A DNA stretch of 64,000 nucleotides, from the IMG/VR virus record IMGVR_UViG_3300017766_004476, positions 12,413 to 76,412 of that record. One strand, written 5' to 3'. The notes below the pieces were generated by a model, which saw only the letters and a program-made list of their open reading frames with translations, did not search any database and was not told the DNA's origin. A program made the position numbers and the translations under genes. Positions within the stretch are counted from its first letter, which is position 1; each line of letters starts with the position of its first letter. Origin of the DNA: a virus (taxonomy: Duplodnaviria; Heunggongvirae; Uroviricota; Caudoviricetes). Of this stretch, positions 13,514-60,231 are shown in pieces.

Positions 13514-13541
13514 TTGCATCCCGGAGAAATATCGCTATAAT
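13514..13541 (+). promoter_or_regulatory. sigma70-like promoter TTGCAT-N16-TATAAT driving a 12-codon ORF and a structured RNA
   Basis: Followed by a perfect SD AAGGAG (13554-13559) and ATG at 13565 (MLRMRSAHDKRS*, 13565-13603). Confidence 0.45.
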
Positions 13542-36408: not shown

Positions 36409-37068
36409 TTACTTAATAATTTGTCTTAGGTAATCAGGAGTTCTGAAATCAATACAATCAATTTCATCAATATCGAGACAGCGAAACTCAACACCCTGTA
36501 TGGTCATATTCAAGCGCTTGTGGTGGTGACCGAAGAACCACTTATCTGGTTTATGTATTTCCAAAAGTGATGAAAGAAGATTAGCAGTCTTATTGGGTAC
36601 TACATACTGCTGAGGTATACCGAGCCAGGTATATAGATCAAGCGGACAGTCATGAGTAATCATAACCTCAGGCTTAATCCGGGTATACATATCCACAACT
36701 TCACCGCATTGCTGATAGGAGAGCTCTTCACCTTCCCACCAATCAATAGTAGGGGTGCGGAGCGCTTTATCAATGGAATGTGCACCAGAGACCCACATTA
36801 CCTTCTCATTTGCACTGCACCCATAATCCCCTAGATAGCCTGCAAAATCTAAAGTAGCCGCAGGGTTGTCATGATTGCCGCGAATGTAATAGAAGTTATC
36901 TCCAGGATGCTCTAGTTTAAGTCTCCAATGGTCCCTAAATCCAATTCCTAGATCACCAATCTGAATAATCGGTAGATACGGGAACTGTTTACGCGCCGCT
37001 CTAAGGGTACGAAAATCACCATGCACATCACCCACCAGCACTACTTTATCTGTAAAAATGTTCTTCAT
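36409..37068 (-). CDS. Ser/Thr-phosphatase-like metallophosphoesterase
   Basis: GDVHGD, GDLG, GNHD and GHHH motifs in order. Confidence 0.8.
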   Translation of the reverse strand: MKNIFTDKVVLVGDVHGDFRTLRAARKQFPYLPIIQIGDLGIGFRDHWRLKLEHPGDNFYYIRGNHDNPAATLDFAGYLGDYGCSANEKVMWVSGAHSIDKALRTPTIDWWEGEELSYQQCGEVVDMYTRIKPEVMITHDCPLDLYTWLGIPQQYVVPNKTANLLSSLLEIHKPDKWFFGHHHKRLNMTIQGVEFRCLDIDEIDCIDFRTPDYLRQIIK

Positions 37069-37533: not shown

Positions 37534-38547
37534 TTAAACTAAAATATTCTTTTCAATAGGCTGACCATGCATCCAGTGCTTAGTAGTTTGAACATGATTC
37601 TTTCTCACAAACTTTGCGACTGATTTATTAAAGTCTTTATAGAGAAAGGATGATGCTAATCTAACTACATACCCTTCCTTCTTTGAAGTATCCATACTCT
37701 CTGCTAATTCTTTAAGCTGCTTTTCATTCCATATACCTCTATAAAGAACTGGTACTGAAGTAATACCTAACAACTCAAACCACTCCTGAGTATCATTCCA
37801 ATCAAGACACATACTATAGTTCCATACTGAGAAGCCCATAAAGTATGTAGGTAGGGTATATCTTAAAGAATGAACTGCATAGAGATTCTCTCCGCAAACT
37901 CTATAGCCTTCTGGTATATCCGATTTAATACTTGACCAGAAGTTCTTAAGCCAATTGCGACTTGCATGATTACGACTATCAACTGACCGTGCATGAATGT
38001 AGTTGTTGTAGAGTGATGAGTTCTCACCATCCATCTTCTCAGTAACTACAATCTCTGTACCTAAGAAGTGATCGAGATTATGAGCCACTCTATCATCATC
38101 CGTTACATTACCCGACCAGGGAAGATGATATGTTCGCGGATACTTAACCCATGAGGTAAATGAACTCAATACTCCACCTTGCGCTAATATCTTCTGGACG
38201 CTCTCATCTTCAAACAACTCACCTCTCACTCGTGCACCAGATTCAAGAATTGGATTACCCCACTTATCATAAATCTGATCATCATACAAATGAGGAGGTA
38301 TAATCTTCTTGGTAATGCCACATGCTTCTCGAATCTGCTCAACCGACAGCTCAGTAGTCTCTGCTTGAATATGATGAAGACCGCACAATGTTGCACCATT
38401 AGAAAGGTAATAACCTCCATCAGGCCAGAGTCTCCTCTCTAGTATATGATGAGCATCTTGACCTGATGCATGACAAATCACACAGAGATGCTTATCTCTT
38501 TTAAAAACAGCATCTCGGAATTCATCTCGGGTTAAAAGCTTTTCCAT
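37534..38547 (-). CDS. RNA-ligase-family nucleotidyltransferase with N-terminal HNH-like zinc-finger module
   Basis: N-terminus is CVICH…HHILER…N…CGLHH (HNH-like). C-terminus carries motif I EKMDGEN, motif IV EGYVVR and motif V KFVRK. Confidence 0.6.
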   Translation of the reverse strand: MEKLLTRDEFRDAVFKRDKHLCVICHASGQDAHHILERRLWPDGGYYLSNGATLCGLHHIQAETTELSVEQIREACGITKKIIPPHLYDDQIYDKWGNPILESGARVRGELFEDESVQKILAQGGVLSSFTSWVKYPRTYHLPWSGNVTDDDRVAHNLDHFLGTEIVVTEKMDGENSSLYNNYIHARSVDSRNHASRNWLKNFWSSIKSDIPEGYRVCGENLYAVHSLRYTLPTYFMGFSVWNYSMCLDWNDTQEWFELLGITSVPVLYRGIWNEKQLKELAESMDTSKKEGYVVRLASSFLYKDFNKSVAKFVRKNHVQTTKHWMHGQPIEKNILV

Positions 38548-38842: not shown

Positions 38843-39120
38843 ATAGACCTCGACTTTCTTTGATCAACAGGAATTGAGGATGTGTGTTGACCAAAGAGCA
38901 TTTTTTCAAGATGATATTGATCATCAGCATGAGGCTTTACCCCTAAAGAGACTGATTCTCCATAAGGTATTACTCGCTTATCCTCCCAGTCGATTGATAC
39001 AAAGCCCGCACCGATTACCTTTTTACCTCTTACAGTGTGTGCATGCTCTGCATGTTCTGGAAAGATTAACGGTACAGTAAGTCCAAACTCTCCTTCTATT
39101 GTCACATATTTAAGTCTCAT
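38839..39120 (-). CDS. hypothetical protein (93 aa)
   Basis: ORF. Confidence 0.45.
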   Translation of the reverse strand: MRLKYVTIEGEFGLTVPLIFPEHAEHAHTVRGKKVIGAGFVSIDWEDKRVIPYGESVSLGVKPHADDQYHLEKMLFGQHTSSIPVDQRKSRSI

Positions 39121-39673
39121 AAGCGTATAAATTCTTTAGGTAGTCTCCATATTCATTACGGAGCTTGGCACGAATATTACAAAGTCGTACCTTAATGGTA
39201 TTAGGAGTAGTGTTAATTCTCTGTGCAATCTCCTTAATAGGCACCTCATCAATATAAAACCAAGTAAAGATATCTCTATATTGATGCGGAAGAAGGTTGA
39301 TTATTGGTTCAATACCTAATTCTGAAACATATTGATCTTCAGCTATCATTGAAGATATTTCATTACGTGCAGATAATCCGAGCTCATCATCATCGATATA
39401 AACTTTATTTACCTCTCGGTAAGGCATAGGGCAGCGGAAGAGAGTATCAACAATCTTCCGTTTTGCTGCTACGATAAGCCACCGATGAACTGCATCTGAG
39501 TTGTGAGATTTGAGTTTAGTAAAGGAGTTGTAGAGAGAGATAAAGACATCTTGAACAATATCTTCTACATTAATAGTACCTCGCGGGCACTTGGTATAAA
39601 TGTAGTTTCGAATAGTATTTACCTCTTTAAGGTAAACTTGTTCAAACATTTCATTTATTTGTTCTTGATGCAT
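39110..39673 (-). CDS. sigma-70 family (ECF-like) RNA polymerase sigma factor
   Basis: Region-2-like DIVQDVFISLY and region-4 HTH VPIKEIAQRINTTPNTIKVRLCNIRAKLR. Confidence 0.65.
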   Translation of the reverse strand: MHQEQINEMFEQVYLKEVNTIRNYIYTKCPRGTINVEDIVQDVFISLYNSFTKLKSHNSDAVHRWLIVAAKRKIVDTLFRCPMPYREVNKVYIDDDELGLSARNEISSMIAEDQYVSELGIEPIINLLPHQYRDIFTWFYIDEVPIKEIAQRINTTPNTIKVRLCNIRAKLRNEYGDYLKNLYAYET

Positions 39674-44435: not shown

Positions 44436-45146
44436 TTAATTATCAAGGAGATCGAAGAGTGCAAGTTCAAAGGAAGCTTTCTTTGTAAAGACCTGAATAT
44501 ATTTCTTATCAATCATTTGCTCACGAAAGAGATGAACTTGCGTCAATACATCATCCGTGCGTATATAGCCGGGCTCAATATAAATTAAAATGTCACAATT
44601 ACGCAATCCTGGAGAACCCTCCCAGTAATTCTTGACGCGCTCTAATGTCCCCCCTAACTCGAATAAGGTAATCGGGCATACAGTCTCTTTACAGAAGTAA
44701 AATGTAACAATACGAACCTGACGCAAAGCATTAAACTCCCACTTTATCTGCTCTTCAGTCATCGCTTTATTAGAGATATCAAAGTCATCACGGCGGGGGT
44801 TGATGAGGGTTACCGGTTTGGTATCCCATTTGTGAATTTCTGCTATTAGATCACTTTGCCAATCGTTACAGTTCGAAATCCCCCCTGCAAGAAAAATTGA
44901 CCGAGCGTGAAGCTTTCTATCGAGCTGAACGGCGCCAGGTGGAGTAATTACATTATGATACATAATTTTACAGTTTGAATTTACAACAGAAGCACCTACT
45001 TTTTTGACATTATGCCTGTTGAGGTTACTTGCAAGTAACCCCTTAAACTTCTGAATTGAATGATTCAGGGCTGCAGTCTTTCCTTTTTTAACCGCCTGTG
45101 CAGCTGTAATAGGGTAAAATTCTTCTAACCATGTTTTAAGGCTCAT
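44436..45146 (-). CDS. nucleoside 2-deoxyribosyltransferase-like (Rcl/DNPH1-fold) protein
   Basis: IFLAGG…NP…RIVTFYFCKETVCPITLFELGGTLE pattern typical of the family. Confidence 0.5.
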   Translation of the reverse strand: MSLKTWLEEFYPITAAQAVKKGKTAALNHSIQKFKGLLASNLNRHNVKKVGASVVNSNCKIMYHNVITPPGAVQLDRKLHARSIFLAGGISNCNDWQSDLIAEIHKWDTKPVTLINPRRDDFDISNKAMTEEQIKWEFNALRQVRIVTFYFCKETVCPITLFELGGTLERVKNYWEGSPGLRNCDILIYIEPGYIRTDDVLTQVHLFREQMIDKKYIQVFTKKASFELALFDLLDN

Positions 45147-45184: not shown

Positions 45185-45676
45185 TTATGTGGCCCAATAC
45201 TCCCGTATCTTCATGAGGATTTCACCTAACTTATTCTCACCTTTACCTCTACATACTCCCCAGTATACATCTCCCCAATAATTTGTTTCTTCGAGATATG
45301 CATCTCCCGTCTGAAGGAGCGCTTGTCTGATGTCAGTATTATGGTAGAATTTACTGAATACAATTTGTGACATTATATCATACTTCTTTCTATCCCATTC
45401 TTCAGGAGTATAGAGATTATCACCTTGAGCGAGAAATATTTTAATTTTCTTCTTAGATTCACCCGGTGTATATTTCTGAAAATTCATCCGAAAGAATCCC
45501 GGCTTAAGCTTTGCAGCTTGATATGCACACTCAGAAGAAGGAAAGAGATCGCCTTCAAACCACACCGGCGCAATATAAAAATTGCTTAAGAAGAAGTAAC
45601 CAGAGCTCGGAGAGAACCCTTTAATGGGGTCTGGTTCCTCTATAAATTGAGAGAATCTATCATCTAATCTATTCAT
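45185..45676 (-). CDS. NADAR (YbiA/DUF1768) domain protein
   Basis: FLSNFY…FPSSECAYQAAK…WG…GENKLGEIL signature. Confidence 0.7.
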   Translation of the reverse strand: MNRLDDRFSQFIEEPDPIKGFSPSSGYFFLSNFYIAPVWFEGDLFPSSECAYQAAKLKPGFFRMNFQKYTPGESKKKIKIFLAQGDNLYTPEEWDRKKYDIMSQIVFSKFYHNTDIRQALLQTGDAYLEETNYWGDVYWGVCRGKGENKLGEILMKIREYWAT

Positions 45677-45677: not shown

Positions 45678-45947
45678 TTAACAAAGTACTAAACCATTTC
45701 TGCTTATATAGTCAACAACTTGATAAAAGCCTCTCAATACTGTAGGCTCTACCCCTTCTTTATTAACAGACTCAGTAGAGTTAAAGATAAGTACTACAAC
45801 ATTATTCCCTTTATAGTACTTTTTAAAAAGTGATGATTTTGGTTCTGCAATGTAGTATCCTATATTCTCATATGAGAGATAGTCTTTAATTAGAGTAGCA
45901 GTCTCCTTTTCACGCCCAAAATTTAAGGATAGTACGTATGCAATCAT
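45678..45947 (-). CDS. hypothetical protein (89 aa)
   Basis: ORF. Confidence 0.45.
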   Translation of the reverse strand: MIAYVLSLNFGREKETATLIKDYLSYENIGYYIAEPKSSLFKKYYKGNNVVVLIFNSTESVNKEGVEPTVLRGFYQVVDYISRNGLVLC

Positions 45948-46378
45948 TTAATTAGCCCTCTCTGAATAAGGTGATAGATAGTAAACCAATCCTCTTCTCC
46001 ATTAAAGCCTGCCTTATCATCAAGGAGAACATTGAAGTAAAACTTATGAGAGAAGTCACATAGTTCAGTATTAGGGCAATCAGGATTCTGATTGATGTAG
46101 TGAAATGCTAAATCAAACCTTTCAAGCGCACCTTTAATAGCGTCGGGGTGGCTTGATGTCCAGAGAATGGATTTATGTTCCTGACACTGGAGAAGATGCG
46201 CAAGGCAGAACTGCGCGTATGGATAGACTGTTGCACCTTCATTGTTGCGGTTATACTTACCGGTAATGATGGTATCATGCAAATCAATAGCCCAAAAGAT
46301 GTGTGTCCAATCAGGACGTCTACGCTTTTGCTCTAATACCTTTAAGATATGTCTCTTTAGATGCTCATTGATTTGCAT
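45944..46378 (-). CDS. hypothetical protein (144 aa)
   Basis: ORF. Weak HAD-like DLHDT. Confidence 0.5.
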   Translation of the reverse strand: MQINEHLKRHILKVLEQKRRRPDWTHIFWAIDLHDTIITGKYNRNNEGATVYPYAQFCLAHLLQCQEHKSILWTSSHPDAIKGALERFDLAFHYINQNPDCPNTELCDFSHKFYFNVLLDDKAGFNGEEDWFTIYHLIQRGLIK

Positions 46379-47116: not shown

Positions 47117-48091
47117 TTAAAAGAGTTGACTAACACTTTGATGTGTGTGAATGTTAATAATTGCATCTGCAAATAATTTACCAACAGTAAAGCATTGGAT
47201 GCTTGAAGTTGGAGGAACTAATCGAATCGGATGAGAAACTGTATCACTATAGATAAACAGATCAATAGCTCCCCGTCCTCCCACTTGATCATAAACTTTA
47301 TTATACGTCTCTTGATCTCCACAAAAGTGAGTAACTGCACATACGACTCTCTCAGCACCCTTTTCTTTTGCAATACGTGCAGCTTGAATAATTGTAGATG
47401 CGCTTTCGGTAAGGTCATCTACAATCAATACAGTCTTACCATTTACATCTCCGATAAAGTGATTAAACTTTACTTCACTATCACTTATGCGGCGCTTACT
47501 AATGACTGCAAGGTCCGTACCCAGAGCCTCTGCATATCTTTCTGCCCGCTTTAGTGCGCCGATATCAGGTGCAACTATAACCAGATTCTTAAATTTATCA
47601 GGATTATGGCGAATGTGGTTGATTATTATAGTCTCAAAGTAGAGATGATCGAGAGGGATATCAGTAAAGCCGACAGCTTGAGGGCTATGAAGATCCATAG
47701 TCAGGATTCGATCGACACCTGCAGCTTTAAATTGATTCATTACCAATTTTCCTGTTACAGGTACCCGTGCCTTATCCTTACGATCCTGCCGCATATACCC
47801 CATAAGCGGACATACAACAGTAACTCTCCGTGCAGATGCTCTCTTTGCAGCATCGACCATTACAAGAAGATCCATCAGTGCATCATTAACCGGCCGACAG
47901 AGTGACTGAACTAAGAAAACATCTGCATCACGAATGTTCTCATGAATCTGACAGTAAGATTCTCCGCTTGGGAATCTATGAGTAAATATATCCCCTATAA
48001 TAGAGGGTGAGTGAGACTCAAGATAACTACTCAACGTTGGCTTAATGCCTGCAGTATTACTATGTCCAAAGAAGACTTTTAGTTTATCCAT
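47117..48091 (-). CDS. prs: ribose-phosphate pyrophosphokinase (PRPP synthetase)-family protein; diverged 5-phosphate-binding loop
   Basis: Start at MDKLKVFFG. Carries FPSGES, RQDRK and MDLHSPQAVGF motifs. The canonical VDDxxDTGGT is replaced by VDDLTESAST. Confidence 0.85.
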   Translation of the reverse strand: MDKLKVFFGHSNTAGIKPTLSSYLESHSPSIIGDIFTHRFPSGESYCQIHENIRDADVFLVQSLCRPVNDALMDLLVMVDAAKRASARRVTVVCPLMGYMRQDRKDKARVPVTGKLVMNQFKAAGVDRILTMDLHSPQAVGFTDIPLDHLYFETIIINHIRHNPDKFKNLVIVAPDIGALKRAERYAEALGTDLAVISKRRISDSEVKFNHFIGDVNGKTVLIVDDLTESASTIIQAARIAKEKGAERVVCAVTHFCGDQETYNKVYDQVGGRGAIDLFIYSDTVSHPIRLVPPTSSIQCFTVGKLFADAIINIHTHQSVSQLF

Positions 48092-48095
48092 ATTT

Positions 48096-48758
48096 TTAGA
48101 CAATATTGAATTCTTTTGCTTCTTTAAAGTTCCAAGTGTTATGATCGATGAGCTGCTCAGGTACAAACATACCTTGGTTGTTCATCATATTCTTGAGAAT
48201 TAAAAGGAGTCTCTGCTCATCTTTCCAAGTCTCTGCTCCGTGGTCATCTCTCCAATAATTAAATATAGCTTGTTCAAGATCAGTTAACTCATGATGACGA
48301 CTCACACCATTACCCATCTCAAAGAAGTATTCAACGAGATTCAGTTGATTTTCTGAAAAGTATCGTAAGAGTCGATTACCCACTTTACCATTTCCTGGGG
48401 TTGATTTCTCAATGGCATCAATAAAAAATGGACTATCGCAAGAATATTCAGTAGCCTCTCCGAGAGTCACCTTATTATCAAACCGGACAAGCCCTAACAT
48501 CATCGAACCGAGAGCACAGCCGACACACTCAACTTTGTTACTCAGAGTGCACTTCTGAAGACTATCATCCTCCGTTAAAGAAGTATCATATGCATCTTTA
48601 ACAGTAACCCACAGCCACTCCCCTGACTCTGCAACAAAGCGCCCACTCACGAGCTGCTTAAATGCATCAGTTACGATAAGAAGACGCTTTTCTGCGTTTG
48701 TTGCCTTCTCGAATTTAGCATTACGTTCTTCGATTTGCTTTTTAATACTTTTGCTCAT
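48096..48758 (-). CDS. hypothetical protein (220 aa)
   Basis: ORF. Confidence 0.5.
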   Translation of the reverse strand: MSKSIKKQIEERNAKFEKATNAEKRLLIVTDAFKQLVSGRFVAESGEWLWVTVKDAYDTSLTEDDSLQKCTLSNKVECVGCALGSMMLGLVRFDNKVTLGEATEYSCDSPFFIDAIEKSTPGNGKVGNRLLRYFSENQLNLVEYFFEMGNGVSRHHELTDLEQAIFNYWRDDHGAETWKDEQRLLLILKNMMNNQGMFVPEQLIDHNTWNFKEAKEFNIV

Positions 48759-49054
48759 AAATTTGATAAGATTGAATCGGTTATAATTTCTATTACTTTT
48801 AAATGATTCTTCGGAGGTATCAAGCTTTTTATTCGATCAAATATTTCACCTGATCCCATTGTTGAATGATAATTAGCACCCTCTAATTCCATATCGCAAA
48901 TATTACCAAAATCCGATACAGTTAGAGGGTAGTGTTTTATGGTTGGAATGTTACAGCACACCTCGACTTTATCACGCTTATCTTGAAGATATGATGCACC
49001 GCAACTCTTACACCATCTCCTTACATAATTTCTATATTCTGTTGTCTTGCTCAT
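48755..49054 (-). CDS. hypothetical protein (99 aa)
   Basis: ORF. Confidence 0.45.
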   Translation of the reverse strand: MSKTTEYRNYVRRWCKSCGASYLQDKRDKVEVCCNIPTIKHYPLTVSDFGNICDMELEGANYHSTMGSGEIFDRIKSLIPPKNHLKVIEIITDSILSNL

Positions 49055-49827
49055 TTCTTTTTCTTTGATTTAGGCTTTTCTAGGTATGCAGATAATGCAG
49101 GGGTTGCTATGAGCATAAAAATTACAAACACAATATTAAAAATTACCCACTTCATACATTATTCCTCACTCGATAAACCTCACACACAATAGTCTCTAAA
49201 ACTCTGAAGGGTATGTTTTCATTTCCCGGTTGAGTGGCAAGAACGTGTGCATAGGTACATGCATCACCATGAGAGTATCGAGTTGCTACATCCTCCCATA
49301 CTGAACCGCAACTCTTTTGAATAACAAATTTAGTTTGCTTTTCCATATTATCTCCGATTTCTTCGGTATTTTGGTAGATTAGCATAGAAGGGCTTATCTT
49401 CTTTATGTACACCTTTAGGATCAACTACGTTCTTTAGCATATCTTCTTCCCACTCCTGCGCAGCGCGTTCAAGGCTTAGTTTGGCTATTAATCTTTCTTC
49501 ATAAACATCAGCAATTATAAATCTATGATTCATATTAGCAATAAGTCCGGTACTAAGAATGCTCCTCATTTTCAACATATTTGTCAGTTAGTAAAAGCTG
49601 TTTGCATACTTCTTGATGAGACATTAGACCAGATGAAATATTGTCAGGTGCACCTTCTTGAGCTATCATTTTACCTCGCTCTCTAGTCACAGAGTCCCAT
49701 TCCCATGCAATTGTCTCATAAAACCAGGGTGTAGGAATCATTGCAACTGATGACTCGCGGTGAATAGTACTTACAAAATACCATCTTACCTTACTGTTAA
49801 TGTATGACTGGATGAGAGTTTTTGAGC

Positions 49828-50127
49828 TCATGAATCTCCCTTCTCGCGCTCGAACTGGGCGAGGGCTTTGTTTCTTCCACAGTGACAATCATCAGGTAGG
49901 TTTGACTTAAGCATATTACACCAGTCTTTATGATGCGAAGATACAGCCCAATCCGCCAACTTCTGCGCCGTGTCCATCGAGATGGTTGTGCGGCGGAGTG
50001 ATTCGTAGTCCTCATATGAAACGTAGTCACCGTCCTTAGCCTCTTTAATATACGGTTCATAGAAACGAGTGGTTAGTTCGTAGCGAGTTACCTCTTTCGG
50101 ACACTTCTTAATTTCTTCTGCGCTCAT
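49828..50127 (-). CDS. hypothetical protein (99 aa)
   Basis: ATGA-coupled to the upstream gene. Three further short ORFs (49152..49346, 49348..49569, 49553..49831) follow. Confidence 0.4.
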   Translation of the reverse strand: MSAEEIKKCPKEVTRYELTTRFYEPYIKEAKDGDYVSYEDYESLRRTTISMDTAQKLADWAVSSHHKDWCNMLKSNLPDDCHCGRNKALAQFEREKGDS

Positions 50128-50663
50128 TAGTTTCCTTTCGGGGCGTAGGATTCAAGCGCCTTAATCGCCTCTACCCAACGACCGTAGTTTTTAGGTGATT
50201 GCTTATTAGCATCCAAGTATTCCTGAACTACCTCCCACGGCACCACCGCGCTAGGTGATGGGGTGGAGAGGGCATCATCAAGCCATTTTGAAGCATCAGC
50301 CATGTCATTTATATAACCAGAACATGCAGTCGGTCCGCTGCGGATTGTCGCTAGTGCGTTGCGAGCTTCCATAATCGCCTCCCTCAACGCTCGCAACTCC
50401 CCATCCTTCTGCGCGATAAGCTTATTCAACCCATCAATTTCCTCGCAGTAAGTCGTGATGATTTGGCGACAATCCTGCTCGGATTTAAAAGCTGCACTCA
50501 TACGAGATTGAGTTGCTAGGAGCTGAAGCTCAATAGCAGCGCACACATCTGCATCAACAACTTCAACTTCAACTTCAAATGACTCATCAACTCCTCCATC
50601 TTTAGAGTATGCTTTGAATTTAGCTTTATCTGTTTTTGGTGTTTCTGACATATTATCGCTCAT
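50127..50663 (-). CDS. hypothetical protein (178 aa)
   Basis: ORF. Confidence 0.5.
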   Translation of the reverse strand: MSDNMSETPKTDKAKFKAYSKDGGVDESFEVEVEVVDADVCAAIELQLLATQSRMSAAFKSEQDCRQIITTYCEEIDGLNKLIAQKDGELRALREAIMEARNALATIRSGPTACSGYINDMADASKWLDDALSTPSPSAVVPWEVVQEYLDANKQSPKNYGRWVEAIKALESYAPKGN

Positions 50664-50973
50664 ACTTTAATAAATCTTTTGCTGCTGATTCTGCATGTTG
50701 TTCAACGGATTTAGTTGCATCATCTAAGCGCTTCTTTGCTGCTTGATATTTATCTTCTAGCGTCCAATTGTCATCCCAATACTCTCTAGGCATAGTCATA
50801 AAGCTGCAAACAGATTCACTTGCTTCTAATGCTTCCTTTAACGCTTGAATATGTTTATAAGCAACCATCAGCTCTTCTTCAAGCTTACAACCCTCTTCAT
50901 AAAGCCTACTCGCAGTTGAAAGTATACCTATAGGTTCAAGAACTATTTTATCCATTCTCGGTGTATTGCTCAT
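50653..50973 (-). CDS. hypothetical protein (106 aa)
   Basis: ORF. Confidence 0.45.
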   Translation of the reverse strand: MSNTPRMDKIVLEPIGILSTASRLYEEGCKLEEELMVAYKHIQALKEALEASESVCSFMTMPREYWDDNWTLEDKYQAAKKRLDDATKSVEQHAESAAKDLLKYER

Positions 50974-51131
50974 ACTTTATGTGTTTAATTTTAAGAGGGT
51001 CCAACCCGCACCCGCGCAAAATGCGAGAATGCAAGATACTTCAAATGGGCTCTCTTTTTTTAAGATAACCGAGACGCAAGCACCAATTATAAGAATAATA
51101 GCGATTAAAATAATGCAGTTCATAAATTATA

Positions 51132-51791
51132 TTACCATCCTTCCATGGGGTGTTCTAGATATACCTGCACTTGACGGCGCAGTTCATTCGTAGGCTTACG
51201 TCCGGTATTGCGACTGCAACGAATAAACCATCTCCATCCATTATCAACTGCTCTGACACCTTGATGCCAAGTATAACAGTTAAAGTACACAAATACGTTA
51301 CTCGGTGCAGAGACTTTTATGAGCTCTCGATGCTTGATCTTCTCTTCAACCAGCGGATGCCAAACCTTGTAGCAGACCTCACCTTCAGCTACTCGAGGAA
51401 ACTCGCTGTTACCTATAGCAAATTCTGTTGGTGCAATATTTCCATTAACTAAGCACAAAAGATGCTCAGCCTCATATTCCGGAGTATCGTAATTAGGTTG
51501 CTTATCCTTACGGCTGCGCGGAATGTCATCGTGATGGTATCCCGGAATGCAAGGAAACCAACCCTTCATGAGCATATGCACGCGGCTGTCGATGATTAAA
51601 TCAGGTGCATTACGCCAATCAGGAGAAAGATTGTCTAAGAATGCTTCAGTGATAGGCCCTTGAAGCTGTCGTGCAGTCTTATAATCACAGTTAAACAGCA
51701 TCGGTTCATTCTTAATAACTGCTTCCGCAAACTGAGGGATAGCTTGATTAAGATTGACCTGTAATTCACTTTTGAATGTGTGATTTTTCAT
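51132..51791 (-). CDS. possible 2OG-Fe(II)-oxygenase-superfamily protein
   Basis: GYHHDD (HxD), distal WHQG His, and RWFIRCSR Arg. Order is compatible but the call is weak. Confidence 0.4.
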   Translation of the reverse strand: MKNHTFKSELQVNLNQAIPQFAEAVIKNEPMLFNCDYKTARQLQGPITEAFLDNLSPDWRNAPDLIIDSRVHMLMKGWFPCIPGYHHDDIPRSRKDKQPNYDTPEYEAEHLLCLVNGNIAPTEFAIGNSEFPRVAEGEVCYKVWHPLVEEKIKHRELIKVSAPSNVFVYFNCYTWHQGVRAVDNGWRWFIRCSRNTGRKPTNELRRQVQVYLEHPMEGW

Positions 51792-51943
51792 TACGTTGTT
51801 AAATTAATAGTTAGAGAGTGATAAATCAAAGTAATATATAGCTTTTATCATATGTTCTAAATGGGAAGCTTTTGTTCTAAAAGGGGTTGATACAATTTAC
51901 ATATATCAACCCCTGTGAATTTTTAACTCATTTAGATCAAATG

Positions 51944-53365
51944 CTACAATTGTGCATTCTTTCTGACTTCATCGAAGGTAATCGGGTTAACCAATTTACC
52001 ATGATTAAAGACTTCAACCATTACATCAGGTCGCGGATCATCAACCGATACTGTTGCATAGGCGCTTCCATGAGCACCTTCAACCTTAACTAGCTTCAAG
52101 CGACCTGCTTTCGATTTCTTGCTCTGATCGAGAGGAAGCTTCTGAACATCTTCCCAGACTCCATTACGGAGCTGTGCACTGCACTTGAATGCAAACCGCT
52201 GAGTGTCGCGATTTACCTTCTGGAGTAGAGCGCCGCCCTTACCGAAGCATGCAATATTTTCTGTAGCATATCCATTGGCTGCTAGAAGAAAGAGAATTTT
52301 CTGAATTCCCTTATCATCAATACCATCACCCCAAAGTACTCTCACCTTATTGTTGATGACTTTATAGTTTTTACTATTGACATATCCTCCTGGAAGAAGC
52401 TTATAGAGCGTGTCAACAATCCACAGCATCTCTTCTTCTGGGGTCTTATGGGTAGGTGTTACACTGTCAGGACGAATTACAAACAATCCATCACGGTCGA
52501 GGATCTGCTGCTTGAATTGGTCACAGACGTATTTTTCTACGAAGTTGTAGATATTGTAGCTATCTGCAACCACACTTAGAATACCTGTCTTATAAGTATC
52601 AAGCAAGCGCTGGAGAACTTTTGCTTCTCCATTATTACCCTCTGCAGTCATAATGCGGTGCTCAGTTGCAGCAACCGAATATGCCAATGTCTCAAGGTTT
52701 GCATCATAATATGCTTCTGCAAGTTCCATACCTGCAATAGTATCAGTACCTTTGAAGTTAATCAAATGAGCAGCACCACCTAGAGCAGCACTCTCATACG
52801 AACTAACTCCCCGGTAACCAAAGTCATGTAACATGAAATCAAGGAGACCTTTATCGGAAGTCTTTTCAAGATAGACCTTAATCATCTTCTTAACTTCACG
52901 GCTTAGAGTTGCAACCGTACATGGATACCAAACCTGGCTGAGAATGGTTTCAAGATAATTCACCAACCATGCATGCTTCTCATCGGTTGCTTCAACAGTC
53001 ATGAGTACATTATTGACGGGTACTACTGTACCTTCGGGGACCGCCTTAATAATGATAGGCAGCTCACCGTTATGATTCTTGAGGATGTCCATCCAGCCTG
53101 CTTCATTAAAGAACTTCTCATCACCAAAGTGACATTTGACGAGATGCTTTGCTTGTTGAATTTCTTCAAAAGATACCCTGCGCCCACAGAGATGCTCTTC
53201 AAGAATTGCCTGAAGACCAAAGAACACAGTTGTATCCCATTTGGCACCGGGACGACTCTCGAAGTATGCATGAGTGTTGGTAGTTCCCGGAGGAAGCATA
53301 TTCCAATGTCCTCCCACTTTGTAGCTATCACTCTTATAGCAAATATTATTTCCAATTTTTTTCAT
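51944..53365 (-). CDS. nadV: nicotinamide phosphoribosyltransferase family (NAMPT/NadV; alternatively Namat-like)
   Basis: 473 aa. SDSYKV, YFESR and VLWGDGID signatures. Confidence 0.85.
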   Translation of the reverse strand: MKKIGNNICYKSDSYKVGGHWNMLPPGTTNTHAYFESRPGAKWDTTVFFGLQAILEEHLCGRRVSFEEIQQAKHLVKCHFGDEKFFNEAGWMDILKNHNGELPIIIKAVPEGTVVPVNNVLMTVEATDEKHAWLVNYLETILSQVWYPCTVATLSREVKKMIKVYLEKTSDKGLLDFMLHDFGYRGVSSYESAALGGAAHLINFKGTDTIAGMELAEAYYDANLETLAYSVAATEHRIMTAEGNNGEAKVLQRLLDTYKTGILSVVADSYNIYNFVEKYVCDQFKQQILDRDGLFVIRPDSVTPTHKTPEEEMLWIVDTLYKLLPGGYVNSKNYKVINNKVRVLWGDGIDDKGIQKILFLLAANGYATENIACFGKGGALLQKVNRDTQRFAFKCSAQLRNGVWEDVQKLPLDQSKKSKAGRLKLVKVEGAHGSAYATVSVDDPRPDVMVEVFNHGKLVNPITFDEVRKNAQL

Positions 53366-53371
53366 ATAGTT

Positions 53372-53797
53372 TTAGTATTTTAAACAGATTAATTCTTCAT
53401 GTTGTGCAAGTATATTTTTAATTCCGGGCATTACGCGGGGAAGGCACATCACTTCAGGTATACTGAAGAGCTCCCACTTGCCTTTAATTTTGTCAGGCTC
53501 TCTGACAATTGGCTCTCTCATAGTCTCAGCAAGATAGAGAGTGCAGCATTCACAGGTTGCATCAGGTACCCGGTCAATCCATTGATAGTTCCGAATATCT
53601 TTCTGCCAGACAATCCGCGTCTCTTCATAGAGTTCGCGTTTGACTGCAGTGAAGATAGACTCATCATCTTCAACCTCTCCTCCGGGTGCCTGCCAGAAAC
53701 CTTTAAAGGTTCTACAGGTTTGACTTCTTTGAGCAAGCCAAATATACCCACCTGTCGTAATTATAGTAGCAACAGTTTGATTGAGCTTAGTAATCAT
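53372..53797 (-). CDS. Nudix hydrolase
   Basis: Nudix box GGEVEDDESIFTAVKRELYEETRI. Confidence 0.75.
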   Translation of the reverse strand: MITKLNQTVATIITTGGYIWLAQRSQTCRTFKGFWQAPGGEVEDDESIFTAVKRELYEETRIVWQKDIRNYQWIDRVPDATCECCTLYLAETMREPIVREPDKIKGKWELFSIPEVMCLPRVMPGIKNILAQHEELICLKY

Positions 53798-54741
53798 GGC
53801 ATTAATCCTTTCAAGGGAGTAAAGAGATTCTGATACTTCGCAGCATTGTGAGGGTCAGTAAGTTTGATAAAAAGAGGTTTGTGTGTATCAACAAACATAG
53901 TAACATTGAGATCATCAACCTTAAACCATGCTACTTCTGCGATATCATCGGCACCGGTCGGTCGACCCGAGATGTACTTTGCTGCAAACATTGCAGTCTT
54001 AATACAGTCAATCTCTCCGCGATAGCGCCAATCATCAACCTTAGTACTGAAAAGGTAGGTAATACCTCCGATTTCAATACAGGCTTCTTCTTGAACCTCA
54101 CGGCGTGCATCTGCTTCCAAACTCTCCGAACGCGGATCACTGAATCCTCCAATAAAGCGCCATCCCGTCTCATCTGGTTTACGTGCAAGAAGTAAACGAG
54201 TTCCATCTTCACTGAATACTGCGATGTCTACCGTTTGAAATGCAGTAGGATACCGCATGGCAGTACCTGCAATTACACCAGCACGGTAATCAGCATTAGC
54301 AGGGTAGTTATTACATACTCTGCGACGAATTTCCGTACCACTAGTAAAGACTGTTGCTTCATGCTCACATGTCGGATACTTACCCTTGTATTGCTTGAGG
54401 AAGCTATCACGGCTTCCATAGAGAAGAATTTTCTGATGAGCATTGAGAAGTTTTGCGATCTGGCGATCGAGATTTTTACTCCATTGCTCATCATTTGGAG
54501 TGTCATCAATGTAGTGTACTTCAACGGTGGGGAATGCTGCTTCGATCATTTTCCGCCGCGGACCATAATCGAGAGGATTGTTGTAAGTACTGCGAATGGG
54601 TGCATTACCGAGAAATATGATAACGCGGTCATGTTTGTTTACTACACTTTGAATGAGGTCAATATGACCTGCAGTGAGTTCGTGAACCTGGAAGCGACCA
54701 ACGATAGCTCCCACATCCACCTTAGGTGGTTTTGTGCTCAT
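53794..54741 (-). CDS. natV: bifunctional NMN adenylyltransferase / Nudix (ADP-ribose pyrophosphatase) protein (NatV/NadM-like)
   Basis: N-terminus is GRFQVHELTAGH (HxGH nucleotidyltransferase). C-terminus carries the Nudix box REVQEEACIE. Confidence 0.8.
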   Translation of the reverse strand: MSTKPPKVDVGAIVGRFQVHELTAGHIDLIQSVVNKHDRVIIFLGNAPIRSTYNNPLDYGPRRKMIEAAFPTVEVHYIDDTPNDEQWSKNLDRQIAKLLNAHQKILLYGSRDSFLKQYKGKYPTCEHEATVFTSGTEIRRRVCNNYPANADYRAGVIAGTAMRYPTAFQTVDIAVFSEDGTRLLLARKPDETGWRFIGGFSDPRSESLEADARREVQEEACIEIGGITYLFSTKVDDWRYRGEIDCIKTAMFAAKYISGRPTGADDIAEVAWFKVDDLNVTMFVDTHKPLFIKLTDPHNAAKYQNLFTPLKGLMP

Positions 54742-55936: not shown

Positions 55937-56473
55937 CTATACCTTCTTTAAAAGGTTAACTACCTTATCAATCTCGTCTTGAGTATGAGGTGTTCCTCCC
56001 GTATTCATTTCCAAATACCATTGTAGTACTTCCTTCTCAGTTTTAAGGTCATTTACATTAAAACAGAAGAAGGCATCAGTTGTAATCCGATCTTCATAAT
56101 CTTTAAAGTATGTTCCAAATGCAGGAATCTTATTATTTAAAAATTGACGAGCAGTGTGAAGGCGCTGCTTTCCATCTACCAAATAAAAAGGTCCTTTATA
56201 ATTACCTTGCCACCCTACACAATTGAAGTAAAGCTCCCTTCCCGATACTCCACCTTTAAGGATGTACTCAACGTATGCAATTTGCTGAGCCTCAGTCCAC
56301 ACTAAGGGCCTCTGGAAGTATGGATCAATATCCAGACAAGCTAGGTCACCATTTGACCGTTTATCAATCCAATTGAACAAAGTATCTTCAAGATATTTCC
56401 AATCGACATGCGTGCGGTATGAACCACCACGAATCATCTTTGGAATATCAGCGAACCGTTTTAACATAATCAA
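55937..56473 (-). CDS. DUF262/ParB-like nuclease-NTPase domain protein
   Basis: DGxQR signature LVDGKQRLHTA. Confidence 0.55.
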   Translation of the reverse strand: MIMLKRFADIPKMIRGGSYRTHVDWKYLEDTLFNWIDKRSNGDLACLDIDPYFQRPLVWTEAQQIAYVEYILKGGVSGRELYFNCVGWQGNYKGPFYLVDGKQRLHTARQFLNNKIPAFGTYFKDYEDRITTDAFFCFNVNDLKTEKEVLQWYLEMNTGGTPHTQDEIDKVVNLLKKV

Positions 56474-56552: not shown

Positions 56553-57593
56553 TTACTTTAAAACAATCACACGCGAACCAGTAATGAGTTTGCGATTTAC
56601 AGAAGTACTCTGAATGAAGATATCATAATCAGGGTGCGCTTCAGGAGACACCTTAGTCAGTGCAGTCGTATCAAGACCGACGAGCTTACGTGCTTGGGGA
56701 CCGGTGTAGACATTACCTGTCTTCTTTTCATAGATACAAATCTGCTTGTATCCTTGAACCTCTTCACGCTTGGTCAATTGGTAGTAACCCGCGCCGGTGT
56801 TATATGCACCAATCTGACGTTCGATATATTCACGAATCGGTGCATCATACTGAACCTGAAGAATATGATAGTCGGAGTGAGCCAACTTATCGAGACTCGT
56901 CTTCACGGTCTGACTATTGAGGTTGGACAGATCCAACTTGAAGAGACTCTTGGTACCGCGGAATTGACCCGGAGGAGCTGCTTTGCGATATTGCATGAAG
57001 CTCTCGGTTGCCATCTGAATCTTCTTACCCACTTCAGCCATACCCTTTGCAGAGGTATCCCAAACTTGGATATTATCAGCAGGGAATCCAAACTTCTTTG
57101 CTTCATGGACACCTGTTTGATCAGGTACCAATACAGCAACGGTCCAGTTGCTTGGAAGATTACTGATAAGAGCAGGGAAGTTAGACTTATTCTGATAGCT
57201 AGATGCATTTTCACCACCATCAGTGAGGACATACATCAAGAATGCATGGTCTCCGTACATCTGAGGAGTGTGTTCGAGATCCTTAAGTGCCTTAGTTGTT
57301 GCATCAATGAGAGCAGTACCCCCATTAGGCTTATAGAAATCTGCGAGAGAAGGAAGACGCAAAACGTCCTTATCGTAAATGATACAGGAAGTTTGATTAT
57401 CAAAGAGATAAACGGTTACCCGAGTTTCTTGGTTGAGCTCTTGTGAGCGTTGTGCGAGATATTTGATTTGACTATCAAATACTTGAATGGTTTGCTTTTC
57501 GATACCTCCCATTGATCCAGACTCGTCAATTACGAGTACGATGTGGTTGATGAGGCTTTGCTTCATGAGCTCGAGGGCTTGTTTAGTTGGCAT
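56553..57593 (-). CDS. von Willebrand factor A (vWA) domain protein
   Basis: MIDAS motif VIDESGSMGG, plus LTDGGEN. Confidence 0.7.
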   Translation of the reverse strand: MPTKQALELMKQSLINHIVLVIDESGSMGGIEKQTIQVFDSQIKYLAQRSQELNQETRVTVYLFDNQTSCIIYDKDVLRLPSLADFYKPNGGTALIDATTKALKDLEHTPQMYGDHAFLMYVLTDGGENASSYQNKSNFPALISNLPSNWTVAVLVPDQTGVHEAKKFGFPADNIQVWDTSAKGMAEVGKKIQMATESFMQYRKAAPPGQFRGTKSLFKLDLSNLNSQTVKTSLDKLAHSDYHILQVQYDAPIREYIERQIGAYNTGAGYYQLTKREEVQGYKQICIYEKKTGNVYTGPQARKLVGLDTTALTKVSPEAHPDYDIFIQSTSVNRKLITGSRVIVLK

Positions 57594-57620: not shown

Positions 57621-58322
57621 TTAAGATTGCGGTTTCTGAAAGATAAATGCCCCTACAGTTAAGAAGCCTAAATCCTTTACATCAAAGGGATTTTCCGGCA
57701 TTTCTACACTATCAGGACCTATAATTTCAAAGCCCGCGCTCTTAATAATATTTATGAAATCCTGAGGTGAAAGCCACTCAGAAGTTGGGGGATTTTTCCC
57801 ATTATTTAAGTCAGAACTTACCACAAAATACCCACCCGGCTTAAGCTTTTTATAGATGATTTTACAGCTTTCTGATAAACCGATATTCTGTGTGTTATAT
57901 CCATATTCAGGCTTAAAGTGAATAAGGGAACATCCATCAACTACCACATCATAGAAGTCGTCGAAAAGCTGGTCACTTTGAGTAAGGAAGTTAATTTCCT
58001 TAAACTCAATGTTGTCCATATCATAATCTTTCAGACCTGGAATAATTCCCTTATCTGAACAGAACCAATTCTGACCATAGTTGATATCAACATTAGTAAC
58101 ACAGCAGCACTTACTCATTAAAAATGTAGTTGCAGAATAGCCTCCACCTACATCAAGGAGTCGATTAACAGAACCCACATGAATGCGGAGTAAGTCAATT
58201 ATTGCACACCATTTAAGCTGTGCATCAAAATTGAGCTTATCATATCCATTATCCTTAAGAAGCTTATAGACTTGAGGAAATTCTGTCTCAAGATTTACGT
58301 CATTAGAAAATATCTTACTCAT
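57621..58322 (-). CDS. class I SAM-dependent methyltransferase
   Basis: Motif I LLDVGGGYS and LKPGGYFVV. Confidence 0.6.
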   Translation of the reverse strand: MSKIFSNDVNLETEFPQVYKLLKDNGYDKLNFDAQLKWCAIIDLLRIHVGSVNRLLDVGGGYSATTFLMSKCCCVTNVDINYGQNWFCSDKGIIPGLKDYDMDNIEFKEINFLTQSDQLFDDFYDVVVDGCSLIHFKPEYGYNTQNIGLSESCKIIYKKLKPGGYFVVSSDLNNGKNPPTSEWLSPQDFINIIKSAGFEIIGPDSVEMPENPFDVKDLGFLTVGAFIFQKPQS

Positions 58323-58828
58323 GTTAAGAGAAAATTATAGCAGAGGGTGTATTTATCGAGAAGGTTACCTGCTTTGAGATCTGACATATTATGAGTCAAA
58401 TCTGCCAATTTAACAATTTTAGTATCTAAACCATCTTTAATAGTTTGAAGATATCCCAGAATACATAACTCATCTTTATTCGGACGAGAAAGATATTGGA
58501 CATTACATTGAACTTGCCACCCTATCAACTTATTAGGGATCATACCAGGTAATAGCTCCATCTGAAATTTAGTGTCTTCTGCAAGGTCGTGGAGCAGAGC
58601 AGTGCAGGTAATAATTTCTAGAGCTTCTTGAATTCGATATGCTGGAAGCTTATAGATTAGAGGTGCAATTTGAGTTGCAATCTCTGCAACAGGACAGCAA
58701 TGATGAAGAAAGTAATTCAGATTTGAGTTCTTCCTAACCTGATCACCATGTTCTTTCAACCCCAAATTAAAGCACATCTCCGTGCTGGGGGTCACCATGA
58801 TATTAAAGTCACGAATATTAGGAGTCAT
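58319..58828 (-). CDS. HD-domain phosphohydrolase-like protein
   Basis: H…LHDLAED motif. Start at MTPNIRD. Confidence 0.5.
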   Translation of the reverse strand: MTPNIRDFNIMVTPSTEMCFNLGLKEHGDQVRKNSNLNYFLHHCCPVAEIATQIAPLIYKLPAYRIQEALEIITCTALLHDLAEDTKFQMELLPGMIPNKLIGWQVQCNVQYLSRPNKDELCILGYLQTIKDGLDTKIVKLADLTHNMSDLKAGNLLDKYTLCYNFLLT

Positions 58829-58829
58829 A

Positions 58830-59138
58830 TTACTTAATTGATTCGACAAAGATGATGGTACCTTCAAAAACACCCATGTTCGACTTCTCTTTAAAGGTAA
58901 GAGTTTCTGCAACATCGTTAGTAGTTGCAGGTCGTGTCAGATACCACAAGTTATCCTGCTTATAGGTAACATTGAGAAGCTTGGTGTTTGGAGGGAGGTT
59001 AATGGTCATTGAACCCCCATAGTGCTTTGCACGTTGATTGTCGGTACAGCCTACAGAGCTCAAAAGAGCTGCAATAAGTGCACAGGTGGCAATTAAAGTG
59101 AGGGTATTACTGATATGTTTCTTCATAAATTTGTTCAA
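58830..59138 (-). CDS. secreted/lipoprotein (signal peptide, LSSVGC)
   Basis: N-terminal hydrophobic segment and a Cys. Confidence 0.5.
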   Translation of the reverse strand: MNKFMKKHISNTLTLIATCALIAALLSSVGCTDNQRAKHYGGSMTINLPPNTKLLNVTYKQDNLWYLTRPATTNDVAETLTFKEKSNMGVFEGTIIFVESIK

Positions 59139-60231
59139 TTAAATTTCTTAATTGTTTATCTTCGATAGTATCGTGTAAAAGCATTCGAAATGCAAGTGAT
59201 TGTCGAGATTTGATAATATTATTTCGTATCCACTCTGCTTGTTGAGCACGAGGTAACTCGAACACATTATGAATACCAAACAGTATCCGTAGTTGTGCTG
59301 CGATACTAAGAATATCTGCATGTACCTTATAAAGACGTTGGATAAAAGATTGCCAATACTCTAAGATTTCAAAATCATAAGTATTCTCAATATAAGACTG
59401 AAAGTGATCTTTAGGAGGCTTACCAAGATTAAACCACAAATCGAGCATCTTCTTCTCAGATGCAACTTCAGTCTTGAGGTGATGGATATTCCGATACCAA
59501 TCAGATTTGCACTTATGAAGAACTTGATCATTTTGTGAGTAAACTACTACACCCTCTTCACCTTTGAGTGCTTTGATAGCATCTTTGAGAGACTCAATAT
59601 TGTCGTAATGATAATATTTCGGACGCTTAAAGAGACCTTTAACTGCTAAATTGTTAAGGGTAATTTGCTCTGCTAATCGATAGTCTTGATGATATACATT
59701 ACCAATCAAATAAAAGTCAGGCTCATAGTAATGAATGACAATTTGGTTTATAGGTGATACCCACTCAAACAAAAGAGAGAAGTCCCAATTCTCTGATAGA
59801 GGTAGAATTTGAGAAATAGTAGGAATAAGCCGCTCTTTAAACTTTTCAAGCTCTTGCCAATTTTTATGTCCTCGCGAGGTAACCAATCCTGCGCGGGTGC
59901 GGAATATAAAGGTTTCCTTATATCGTGAGACAATTAAAAGTGACCCGTCTAATTTCTCAAGAACATTACATTGTGTAATATCTGTAGGCTCGGAAAATAA
60001 TTCAGACTTCTCATCCCAATTAAAGAATTTAGGAAATCCGGCACTTACGAGCTCTCCTTTTGCATTCCACATAGAGGATCTAAAGATGAGATTATCTTTA
60101 GTCCAGACAACGGGAGCATTCTTGATAGGTTCAACCAGGAAAAGAGTTTCTCTTTCACCAGATGAAAGGAGGAATTCAATATTTTTGATACTGAATTCCT
60201 TCCGATTTAATACTGACAAGTCTCTAATCAT
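59107..60231 (-). CDS. rnlA: RNA ligase 1 (T4 RnlA/gp63 homolog)
   Basis: 374 aa, the same length as T4 RnlA. Motif I LEKLDGSL, EGVVVY and HKCKSDWY align with T4 KEDGSL, EGYVAV and KIKSDWY. Confidence 0.8.
   Translation of the reverse strand: MIRDLSVLNRKEFSIKNIEFLLSSGERETLFLVEPIKNAPVVWTKDNLIFRSSMWNAKGELVSAGFPKFFNWDEKSELFSEPTDITQCNVLEKLDGSLLIVSRYKETFIFRTRAGLVTSRGHKNWQELEKFKERLIPTISQILPLSENWDFSLLFEWVSPINQIVIHYYEPDFYLIGNVYHQDYRLAEQITLNNLAVKGLFKRPKYYHYDNIESLKDAIKALKGEEGVVVYSQNDQVLHKCKSDWYRNIHHLKTEVASEKKMLDLWFNLGKPPKDHFQSYIENTYDFEILEYWQSFIQRLYKVHADILSIAAQLRILFGIHNVFELPRAQQAEWIRNNIIKSRQSLAFRMLLHDTIEDKQLRNLIEQIYEETYQ

Follow-up and report, generated by a model that had tools for sequence, protein, structure and literature searches.

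A putative NARP2-type NAD+ rebuilding locus with its own PRPP synthetase in a Caudoviricetes virus record

The window analyzed here, a 64,000-nt stretch of the IMG/VR virus record IMGVR_UViG_3300017766_004476 (Caudoviricetes, a large uncultured phage; positions 12,413 to 76,412 of the record), carries a group of genes that, judging from their sequences and with a probability of roughly 0.7, encode a NARP2-type pathway for rebuilding nicotinamide adenine dinucleotide (NAD+) with its own supply of phosphoribosyl pyrophosphate (PRPP). Four open reading frames (ORFs) named in a preliminary description of this DNA were confirmed at the stated coordinates. All of them lie on the minus strand, and Pfam upheld the domains assigned to them. 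They code for a bifunctional protein in which an NMNAT of the NadM type is fused to a Nudix hydrolase (53794..54741, 315 aa; PF01467 and PF00293), a stand-alone MutT/NudG-like Nudix hydrolase (53372..53797, 141 aa; PF00293), a nicotinamide phosphoribosyltransferase of the Nampt/NadV type (51944..53365, 473 aa; PF18127, NAMPT_N, and PF04095, NAPRTase), and a class-I-type PRPP synthetase, Prs (47117..48091, 324 aa from its ATG; PF13793, PF00156, and PF14572), with a TES-type loop for binding ribose-5-phosphate (R5P). The description had placed them in an NAD+ salvage or reconstitution set of the kind represented by NadV and NatV of phage KVP40, and our results support this set as NARP2, i.e., a Nampt-type enzyme combined with a NadM-type NMNAT-Nudix protein. 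The ORFs of the NMNAT-Nudix protein and the stand-alone Nudix hydrolase overlap by 4 nt, and the gap between the latter and the NAMPT gene is 6 nt, so these three genes look like a single transcription and translation unit. Since the gene set and its order recur in related viral contigs, the grouping of the genes is not due to chance.

In the proposed pathway, Prs would convert R5P and ATP to PRPP, Nampt would combine PRPP with nicotinamide to give nicotinamide mononucleotide (NMN), and the NadM-type N-terminal domain of the NMNAT-Nudix protein is assigned the adenylylation of NMN with ATP to NAD+. The Nudix domain of the same protein would split ADP-ribose (ADPR) to AMP and R5P, by analogy with NadM-Nudix structures deposited as NMN adenylyltransferase/ADP-ribose pyrophosphatases, and the stand-alone Nudix hydrolase may likewise cleave ADPR. 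The domain assignments thus agree with the earlier suggestion that NAD+ could be regenerated from nicotinamide and either ADPR or R5P, with Prs and Nudix able to supply the link. Such a four-step loop, from ADPR through R5P, PRPP, and NMN to NAD+, might recycle both ADPR and nicotinamide, the products of TIR, SIR2, and SEFIR NADases. NARP2 uses up PRPP, over-produces NAD+, and is toxic (Osterman et al., 2024). Its drain on PRPP makes it costly, and it is reported for this reason to be rarer than NARP1, the pathway of Adps and Namat. A dedicated Prs would be expected to ease this drain on PRPP. As R5P from any source would suffice, the pathway would also counter defences whose NAD+ cleavage product cannot be used by NARP1. 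NARP2, unlike NARP1, has been shown to overcome a RES-type defence that leaves ADPR-1''-phosphate (Osterman et al.).

The Prs homolog and its partner enzymes

The Prs homolog is probably a true PRPP synthetase, with R5P and ATP as its substrates. It scored 304.5 bits against the NCBIfam family NF002320 (ribose-phosphate diphosphokinase; cut-off 297) and 301.5 bits against TIGR01251 (cut-off 113), and the three-part architecture of Pribosyltran_N, Pribosyltran core, and C-terminal Pribosyl_synth was complete in Pfam. Its best PDB matches (198-218 bits) were solved PRPP synthetases (PRPS) from Thermus, E. coli, Burkholderia, human, and Bacillus, with which it aligned end to end. Its YMRQDRKDK, DLHS, SKRRI, VDD, and HQSVSQLF stretches align with the motifs of the E. 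coli, Listeria, and S. aureus enzymes, and the motif positions (RQDRK, DLH, KRR, DD, and the C-terminal SxSxxF) were at least 90% invariant in a 39-sequence alignment of its clade. The five Adps references used (HY02, Tsamsa, phiTE, Pontus, and CC2) have DPHS or EPHS and K-x-R-[ND] at the sites where the Prs has DLHS and KRR. After alignment position 262, the window Prs continues for 63 residues and ends in SVSQLF, whereas the Adps references continue for only 20-45 residues without this motif. Adps proteins have about 280 aa (about 265-296), have consistently lost the C-terminal α11-α12 module, have remodelled regulatory loops and allosteric sites, and are neighboured by Namat, in 97% of cases (PMC13586617).

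These features agree with the distance-based neighbour-joining trees (200 bootstraps), in which the five Adps were split from all other sequences, including the window Prs, in 200/200 replicates. The window Prs fell within a clade of 54 members, solely viral or metagenomic sequences, in 159/200 replicates, and the Prs of Verrucomicrobiota and Planctomycetota were weakly supported neighbours of this clade. The preliminary description had suggested that the Prs homolog might act on ADPR as Adps does. This suggestion did not hold, as the protein clustered with bona fide PRPP synthetases in the neighbour-joining trees, retained the features that are lost in Adps, and has a partner of the Nampt type. 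The blastp scores followed the same order, with 300-334 bits for clade relatives, 272 for the Akkermansia Prs, 218 for the E. coli Prs, and 54-81 over partial length for Adps. Identity was 38-50% over the full length to Prs of E. coli, Listeria, and Verrucomicrobiota and 25-32% over partial length to the five Adps. The nearest cellular Prs were those of Verrucomicrobiota, Planctomycetota, and Balneolales.

The PHROGs ribose-phosphate pyrophosphokinase family (282 positions) covers only residues 37-257 of the window Prs, and 33 of the 702 Prs-like matches in phage records span at least 80% of the query. Most of the 30 matches listed were contigs that lack annotation, bear phage names, and resemble host sequence; the others came from huge uncultured phages and from a single Microcystis phage with annotation. 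Two other assignments were rejected: a longer, TTG-started ORF reaching to 48166 was not backed by the N-termini of homologs, and membership in the PRK07199 short paralogs was dismissed on the NF005537 score (134 bits; cut-off 322).

The R5P-binding loop of the window Prs, VDDLTESAST (residues 224-233), corresponds to the canonical VDDMIDTGGT. It had been described as the loss of the canonical loop, and our comparison indicates instead a conservative variant of equal length, with D replaced by E, T by S, and the two G residues by A and S, and with the final T of D-T-G-G-T retained. Of the 120 homologs closest to it in the database (about 50% identity, 300-330 aa), 115 have the sequence TESxGT. 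Similarly, the chromosomal Prs of Akkermansia has DDMTESGGT, and those of other Verrucomicrobiota have DD[LM]TETAGT. An Akkermansia example lies beside exosortase, sulfatase, and PutA-like genes, an ordinary chromosomal setting. Among other cellular Prs, there are some with Ser or Asn as the fourth loop residue (ATASS, DTANT), and the loop of the Thermus PRPS, whose structure is solved, is STAGS. The Adps loops remain of the DxGG type (DDICDGGRT, DDLLDGGRT). Because Adps keeps DxGG and chromosomal Prs carry TES or TET, the loop sequence is no argument for ADPR use. A preprint on PRPS evolution (PMC13252144) is silent on loop variants and on viruses.

The NAMPT homolog is assigned to the PRPP-using Nampt type and not to Namat, as indicated by its family scores and clamp residues. 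It scored 510 bits against NF006629 (NadV type; cut-off 405), and the catalytic motifs HDFGYRG, GTDT, ATEH, and RPDS were present in the translation. In the PDB, it matched the Xanthomonas Nampt at 383 bits, mammalian NAMPT at about 365, the Namat entry 9w5x at 219, and one further entry at 200; 9w5x was taken as the SpβL1 Namat because its residue numbering fits the published positions. Two features make up the adenine selectivity clamp that defines Namat: an extended β1-β2 loop and, in helix α18, the aromatic residues F392 and Y396 (SpβL1 numbering) (PMC12774641). The selectivity-clamp helix of the window protein, GKGGALLQKVNRDT, is of the Nampt type, whereas that of Namat reads GIGSFTYQYNTRDT. 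In the multiple alignment, the window NAMPT (GKGGALLQK) has Ala and Lys at the positions of F392 and Y396. The three Namat references share the clamp G[IV]GS[FY]TYQY.TRDT, and their β1-β2 loops are 4-6 residues longer than that of the window protein. The clamp region G.GG[AG]LLQ[KQ] is common to the relatives of the window NAMPT, the homolog of a huge phage, and NadV of the KVP40-like phage nt-1, and the short β1-β2 loop is likewise the same as in nt-1 NadV. In the type of its catalytic motifs and clamp region, the window protein also equals the human and Xanthomonas Nampt.

In the NMNAT-Nudix protein, the motifs TAGH (T/HxGH; HEAH in relatives) and SGTEIRRR (SxTxxR) were recognized. The family profile matched both domains of NadM-Nudix proteins, namely Francisella 2qjt (E=1.7e-11) and Synechocystis 2qjo, and there was a weak match to PHROG 3462, nicotinamide-nucleotide adenylyltransferase. 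Relatives with 62-67% identity are named bifunctional NMN adenylyltransferase/nudix hydrolase by the Joint Genome Institute (JGI), and an identical protein (100%) is found on a JGI metagenome contig of 112,741 bp. The AlphaFold2 model was poor (pLDDT 56, from a shallow alignment), and its best Foldseek matches were NadM-Nudix 2qjo and 2r5w and archaeal NMNATs. Owing to the poor model, Foldseek adds weak support only, and the assignment is carried by the PDB profile search. By tblastn, this protein matched no more than seven phage records, of which four are from huge uncultured phages, and the gene adjoins Nampt in the huge phage LR756502 and in Tunturiibacter phage Tunturi_5.

The preliminary description had also counted the extra Nudix gene among the NAD+ genes. 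The ORF is real and its Nudix box, GGEVEDDESIFTAVKRELYEETRI, is intact, but its tie to NAD+ is weak, because it is a variable accessory of the MutT/NudG-like kind. Its nearest families and structures, all weak, were MutT-related proteins, CTP pyrophosphohydrolase, and NudJ (NudG/NudJ-like), and a homolog was present in 4 of the 26 related loci with a TES-type loop that are described below. In the related contig L004 (197 kb, from an NCBI assembly), the homolog of the C-terminal domain of the window NMNAT-Nudix protein is a stand-alone Nudix protein of 158 aa (3628-4104), with no NMNAT domain recognized adjacent to it. The fusion is thus not universal in the group.

Linkage of Prs to NAD+ genes in related loci

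Related loci were recovered from IMG/VR with the clade alignment as query, and the best 80 Prs loci were compared; a search with the window Prs protein alone returned no loci. Their viral status follows the IMG/VR classification and their gene content. Twenty-six of the 80 carry a TES-type loop, and the remaining 54 carry IDT, VDT, or VDS loops. Neighbours were searched within 10 kb of the viral Prs loci and within 8 kb of 80 cellular Prs loci, the latter from a single genome per bacterial species. In 17/26 TES-loop loci, Nampt lies 49-4336 nt upstream of Prs on the same strand, and either Nampt or NMNAT-Nudix is near Prs in 20/26. No NAD+ gene was found within the search radius in any of the 54 viral loci with other loops (0/54) or the cellular loci (0/80). 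In a 108.7-kb freshwater contig (L097), the genes for NMNAT-Nudix, NAMPT, Macro, Prs, and a protein of the nucleoside 2-deoxyribosyltransferase (NDT) fold are consecutive. In L004, the order is Nudix, NAMPT, HAD, His_Phos_1, NADAR, RNA ligase, and Prs. When the 7.6-kb region was compared by megablast with 50,697 phage records, nothing matched, which indicates that there is no close cultured relative.

Three further minus-strand genes of the window belong to this neighbourhood. The first codes for a small HAD-type phosphatase with a DLHDT motif (45944..46378, 144 aa; weak match to NCBIfam BT0820), a syntenic accessory whose homologs (39-57% identity) occur within 10 kb of Prs in 18/26 TES-loop loci. 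The second codes for a NADAR domain protein (45185..45676, 163 aa; PF08719, 69.5 bits), which belongs to a family that processes ADPR derivatives and is 47% identical to the NADAR protein situated between NAMPT and Prs in L004. The third is another syntenic accessory and codes for a protein of the DrHyd/NDT fold (44436..45146, 236 aa; PF15891), a homolog of which is near Prs in 13/26 TES-loop loci and directly follows Prs in L097. A Macro-domain gene is near the NAD+ genes in 8/26 TES-loop loci (L097 12480-12935; also L017-L023 and L035) and stands between NAMPT and Prs in L097 and L098; in the window, Macro is absent and a NADAR gene takes its place. The only PDB relative of the HAD phosphatase is the hypothetical protein 2obb. 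The AlphaFold2 model of the DrHyd/NDT-fold protein (pLDDT 84) gave the uncharacterized structure 4mcj as its top Foldseek match (TM 0.84), besides weak matches to DNPH1 and NDT. PDB sequence searches with both proteins returned uncharacterized structural-genomics entries only. The NADAR, HAD, and DrHyd/NDT-fold proteins probably process ADPR derivatives or nucleotides, and the latter two may deliver R5P from them.

Neighbourhoods of NadV, NadM, and NADAR in phages were noted in the survey of Iyer et al., which mentions no PRPP synthetase (PMC9503650), and the literature searched contained no paper tying a canonical Prs to NARP2. Therefore, what is new is the linkage of the viral and metagenomic Prs clade with Nampt, which is undescribed in that literature, while the enzymes themselves belong to a known pathway. 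On a broader reading, which is possible but which we hold only tentatively, the TES-loop Prs clade marks a conserved module for regenerating NAD+ among large uncultured phages from aquatic habitats. Its core would be NMNAT-Nudix, Nampt, and Prs, to which HAD, DrHyd/NDT, and NADAR or Macro are added (and His_Phos_1 in a few relatives). Such a module would lead all NAD+ breakdown products (ADPR, ADPR-1''-phosphate, and possibly AMP) through R5P and PRPP back to NAD+, and would form a self-sufficient, PRPP-neutral extension of NARP2 that resists the defences that defeat NARP1.

Several points weigh against the assignment of the locus to NARP2 with its own PRPP supply, or limit parts of it. Every step of the pathway is a prediction from sequence. 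In the window, Prs lies 3.8 kb downstream of NAMPT on the same strand with about eight small ORFs in between, and given this separation the co-regulation of Prs and Nampt may be only presumptive. A scan of 44.0-55.6 kb for σ70 promoters and intrinsic terminators found nothing beyond shuffled expectation, so that the operon boundaries are undefined. The deep nodes of the neighbour-joining trees were poorly supported. At one loop position, Gly is present in nearly all relatives (ESxGT) and Ser in the window Prs (ESAST), and this may affect activity. The NMNAT-Nudix protein is very divergent from the proteins of cultured phages, with no tblastn match to KVP40-like phages at E≤1e-5, and the first part of its Nudix box is longer by one inserted residue. 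Because of this divergence, the insertion, and the poor structural model, ADPR specificity of the Nudix domain is suggested only by analogy. PRPP has many uses, and Prs might serve general nucleotide synthesis. Finally, an anti-defence role, as opposed to a plain boost of NAD+ for phage enzymes, is suggested by the likeness to NARP2.

The last of these points leads to the alternative that survives best, which we nevertheless consider unlikely: the enzymes act as described but were selected for housekeeping NAD+ supply to ligases, ADP-ribosyltransferases, and RNA repair, and not for counter-defence. Many genes of the RNA-repair type surround the locus (those for two RNA ligases, a metallophosphatase, HD, and His_Phos_1), NARP2 over-produces NAD+ even without a defence (Osterman et al.), and KVP40 NadV/NatV was first described simply as a salvage pathway (cited in PMC9503650). 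However, NARP2 experimentally overcomes Thoeris, DSR2, and aRES, and the NADAR, Macro, and Nudix genes that accompany the module are of a kind typically engaged in processing ADPR derivatives in conflict systems. Housekeeping and counter-defence roles can also coexist.

It is more improbable still that Prs is a general auxiliary of nucleotide metabolism, which raises PRPP for purine, pyrimidine, and other syntheses during infection and shares an accessory island with the NAD+ genes but does not serve them specifically. PRPP feeds many pathways, thymidylate synthase and dihydrofolate reductase genes are also near related loci, and the Prs of the huge phage LR756502 is about 400 kb from its Nampt/NMNAT pair. 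The distance between Prs and Nampt in the window and the 54 other viral loci, which carry a canonical Prs without nearby NAD+ genes, also fit this explanation. However, it does not account for an association that is specific to the TES-loop clade (17/26 and 20/26, compared with none in the other viral and cellular loci) and constant in strand and order, nor for the position of Prs inside the run of NAD+ genes in L097.

A NARP1-like route from ADPR through ADPR-PP to NAD+, in which the Prs homolog would serve as an ADP-ribose pyrophosphokinase of the Adps kind, is very improbable, and so is an independent origin of this activity within the TES-loop clade. The tight linkage of a Prs-like to a Nampt-like gene that is the genomic signature of NARP1 in phages (the two are 49-51 nt apart in some relatives), the departure of the loop from DTGGT, and the restriction of the clade to viral and metagenomic sequences are outweighed by the tree, the bit scores, the retained C-terminal module and RQDRK loop, the occurrence of the loop variant in chromosomal Verrucomicrobiota Prs, the Nampt-type clamp of the partner, and the presence of an Nmnat, for which NARP1 has no need; no phage with both pathways was found by Osterman et al.

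If the NARP2 assignment is right, a phage lineage that pairs NARP2 with its own Prs and with ADPR-processing enzymes would show how the PRPP cost of this pathway is removed, and how phages can recycle ADPR without the Adps/Namat innovation. It would also follow for annotation that a phage "Prs" beside a "Nampt" is not automatically NARP1; the discriminators are the C-terminal SVSxLF module, the RQDRK and KRR loops, and the clamp residues of the partner. The biochemistry is predictable. More noteworthy are the conserved module, which is abundant in aquatic metagenomes, and the HAD and DrHyd/NDT enzymes, whose conserved genes are candidates for new steps of phage NAD+ and ADPR metabolism.

Other features of the window

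Several RNA-repair-type genes were found on both sides of the NAD+ genes. They code for an Rnl1-like RNA ligase (59107-60231; phrog_562), a second RNA ligase with an HNH-like N-terminus (37534-38547; phrog_24030), a calcineurin-like phosphoesterase (36409-37068), and an HD-domain protein (58319-58915). A His_Phos_1 phosphatase gene (19896-20591) is 51% identical to the copy located between NAMPT and NADAR in L004. The minus-strand accessory block also contains genes for an ECF-like sigma factor (39110-39673), a GmrSD_N/DUF262-like protein (55937-56473), and a 346-aa protein of PHROG 26613 with a vWA-like N-terminus containing VLVIDESGSM (56553-57593). Directly downstream of NAMPT, the ORF 51132-51791 (219 aa) matched PHROG 1843, a family of unknown function, at 197 bits. 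Its HxD...H-like motifs recall a 2-oxoglutarate-Fe(II) oxygenase, and the ORF is not syntenic with the NAD+ genes of the relatives.

The stretch 10000-13600 is a GC-rich island (GC 0.49-0.53, compared with about 0.39 elsewhere) and may be a recent acquisition. It contains solely minus-strand ORFans of 98-196 aa without a Pfam match, and one of them (12729-13319) has a C-terminal tail rich in Lys and Ala. A tRNA-Leu(TAA) gene (26032-26121) directly abuts an HNH endonuclease ORF on the opposite strand (25184-26029). In addition, a 114-nt tRNA-like stretch at 21914-22027 was matched by Rfam and not by ARAGORN, and is perhaps a tRNA that is interrupted or otherwise unusual.

Comparison with known systems

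The closest known system is NARP2 as represented by NadV/Nampt and NatV/Nmnat-Nudix of Vibrio phage KVP40 (Lee et al., 2017; Osterman et al., 2024). The window likewise has a PRPP-type Nampt near a NadM-type NMNAT-Nudix protein, with the 141-aa Nudix ORF between them. The window Nampt is 40% identical to that of the KVP40-like phage nt-1, and the residues of the clamp region are alike. In nt-1, NadV has no NatV beside it. The likeness of the window NMNAT-Nudix protein to KVP40 NatV itself is one of domain make-up. The window differs from NARP2 in adding a syntenic, full-length PRPP synthetase of a viral and metagenomic clade and the conserved accessories HAD, DrHyd/NDT, and NADAR or Macro.

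The same reaction logic is known from bacteria, which recycle ADPR through R5P to PRPP and have prs-nadV operons that are de-repressed by ADPR, with a prs paralog "committed" to NadV (PMC2330246). In bacterial NadM-Nudix plus NadV systems and the NrtR/ADPR-regulated prs-nadV operons of Shewanella, Acinetobacter, Chromobacterium, and Cytophaga (PMC2330246), ADPR is converted to R5P by Nudix, to PRPP by Prs, to NMN by NadV, and to NAD+ by NadM, a logic identical to that proposed here. Unlike these operons, the window genes are phage-encoded, no NrtR was seen in the window, and the window Prs is nearest to the Verrucomicrobiota/Planctomycetota type and scores far below the NF005537 cut-off. The class I Prs of Verrucomicrobiota, e.g., Akkermansia, share 42-50% identity, length, and motifs with the window Prs and have a TE[ST]xGT loop of the same kind. 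However, they stand in ordinary chromosomal contexts without NAD+ genes, and the phage sequences form a clade of their own.

NARP1 (Adps and Namat; Bas63, SpβL1, and ICP1) resembles the window in coupling PRPS-fold and Nampt-fold genes for a presumed rebuilding of NAD+ after NADase action. The window Prs falls outside the Adps clade and differs in retaining the α11-α12 region at its C-terminus as well as both the RQDRK loop and the catalytic KRR loop, and the window Nampt differs in having no aromatic adenine clamp. An Nmnat is also present in the window. In the NARP1 locus of Pectobacterium phage phiTE (2327-5627 of that locus, L007), HNH endonuclease genes lie between Adps and Namat and divide the Namat gene into two annotated coding sequences.

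Finally, the NARP1-AP pathway extends NARP1 with the Macro-domain ADPR-1''-phosphate phosphatase Adpp (Adps, Adpp, and Namat; bioRxiv 10.64898/2026.01.28.702374). The Macro gene between Nampt and Prs in relatives such as L097 recalls such a pathway extended to ADPR derivatives, a likeness to Adpp/Poa1p at the level of the Macro domain. The window itself differs in having NADAR and the HAD phosphatase in place of Macro.

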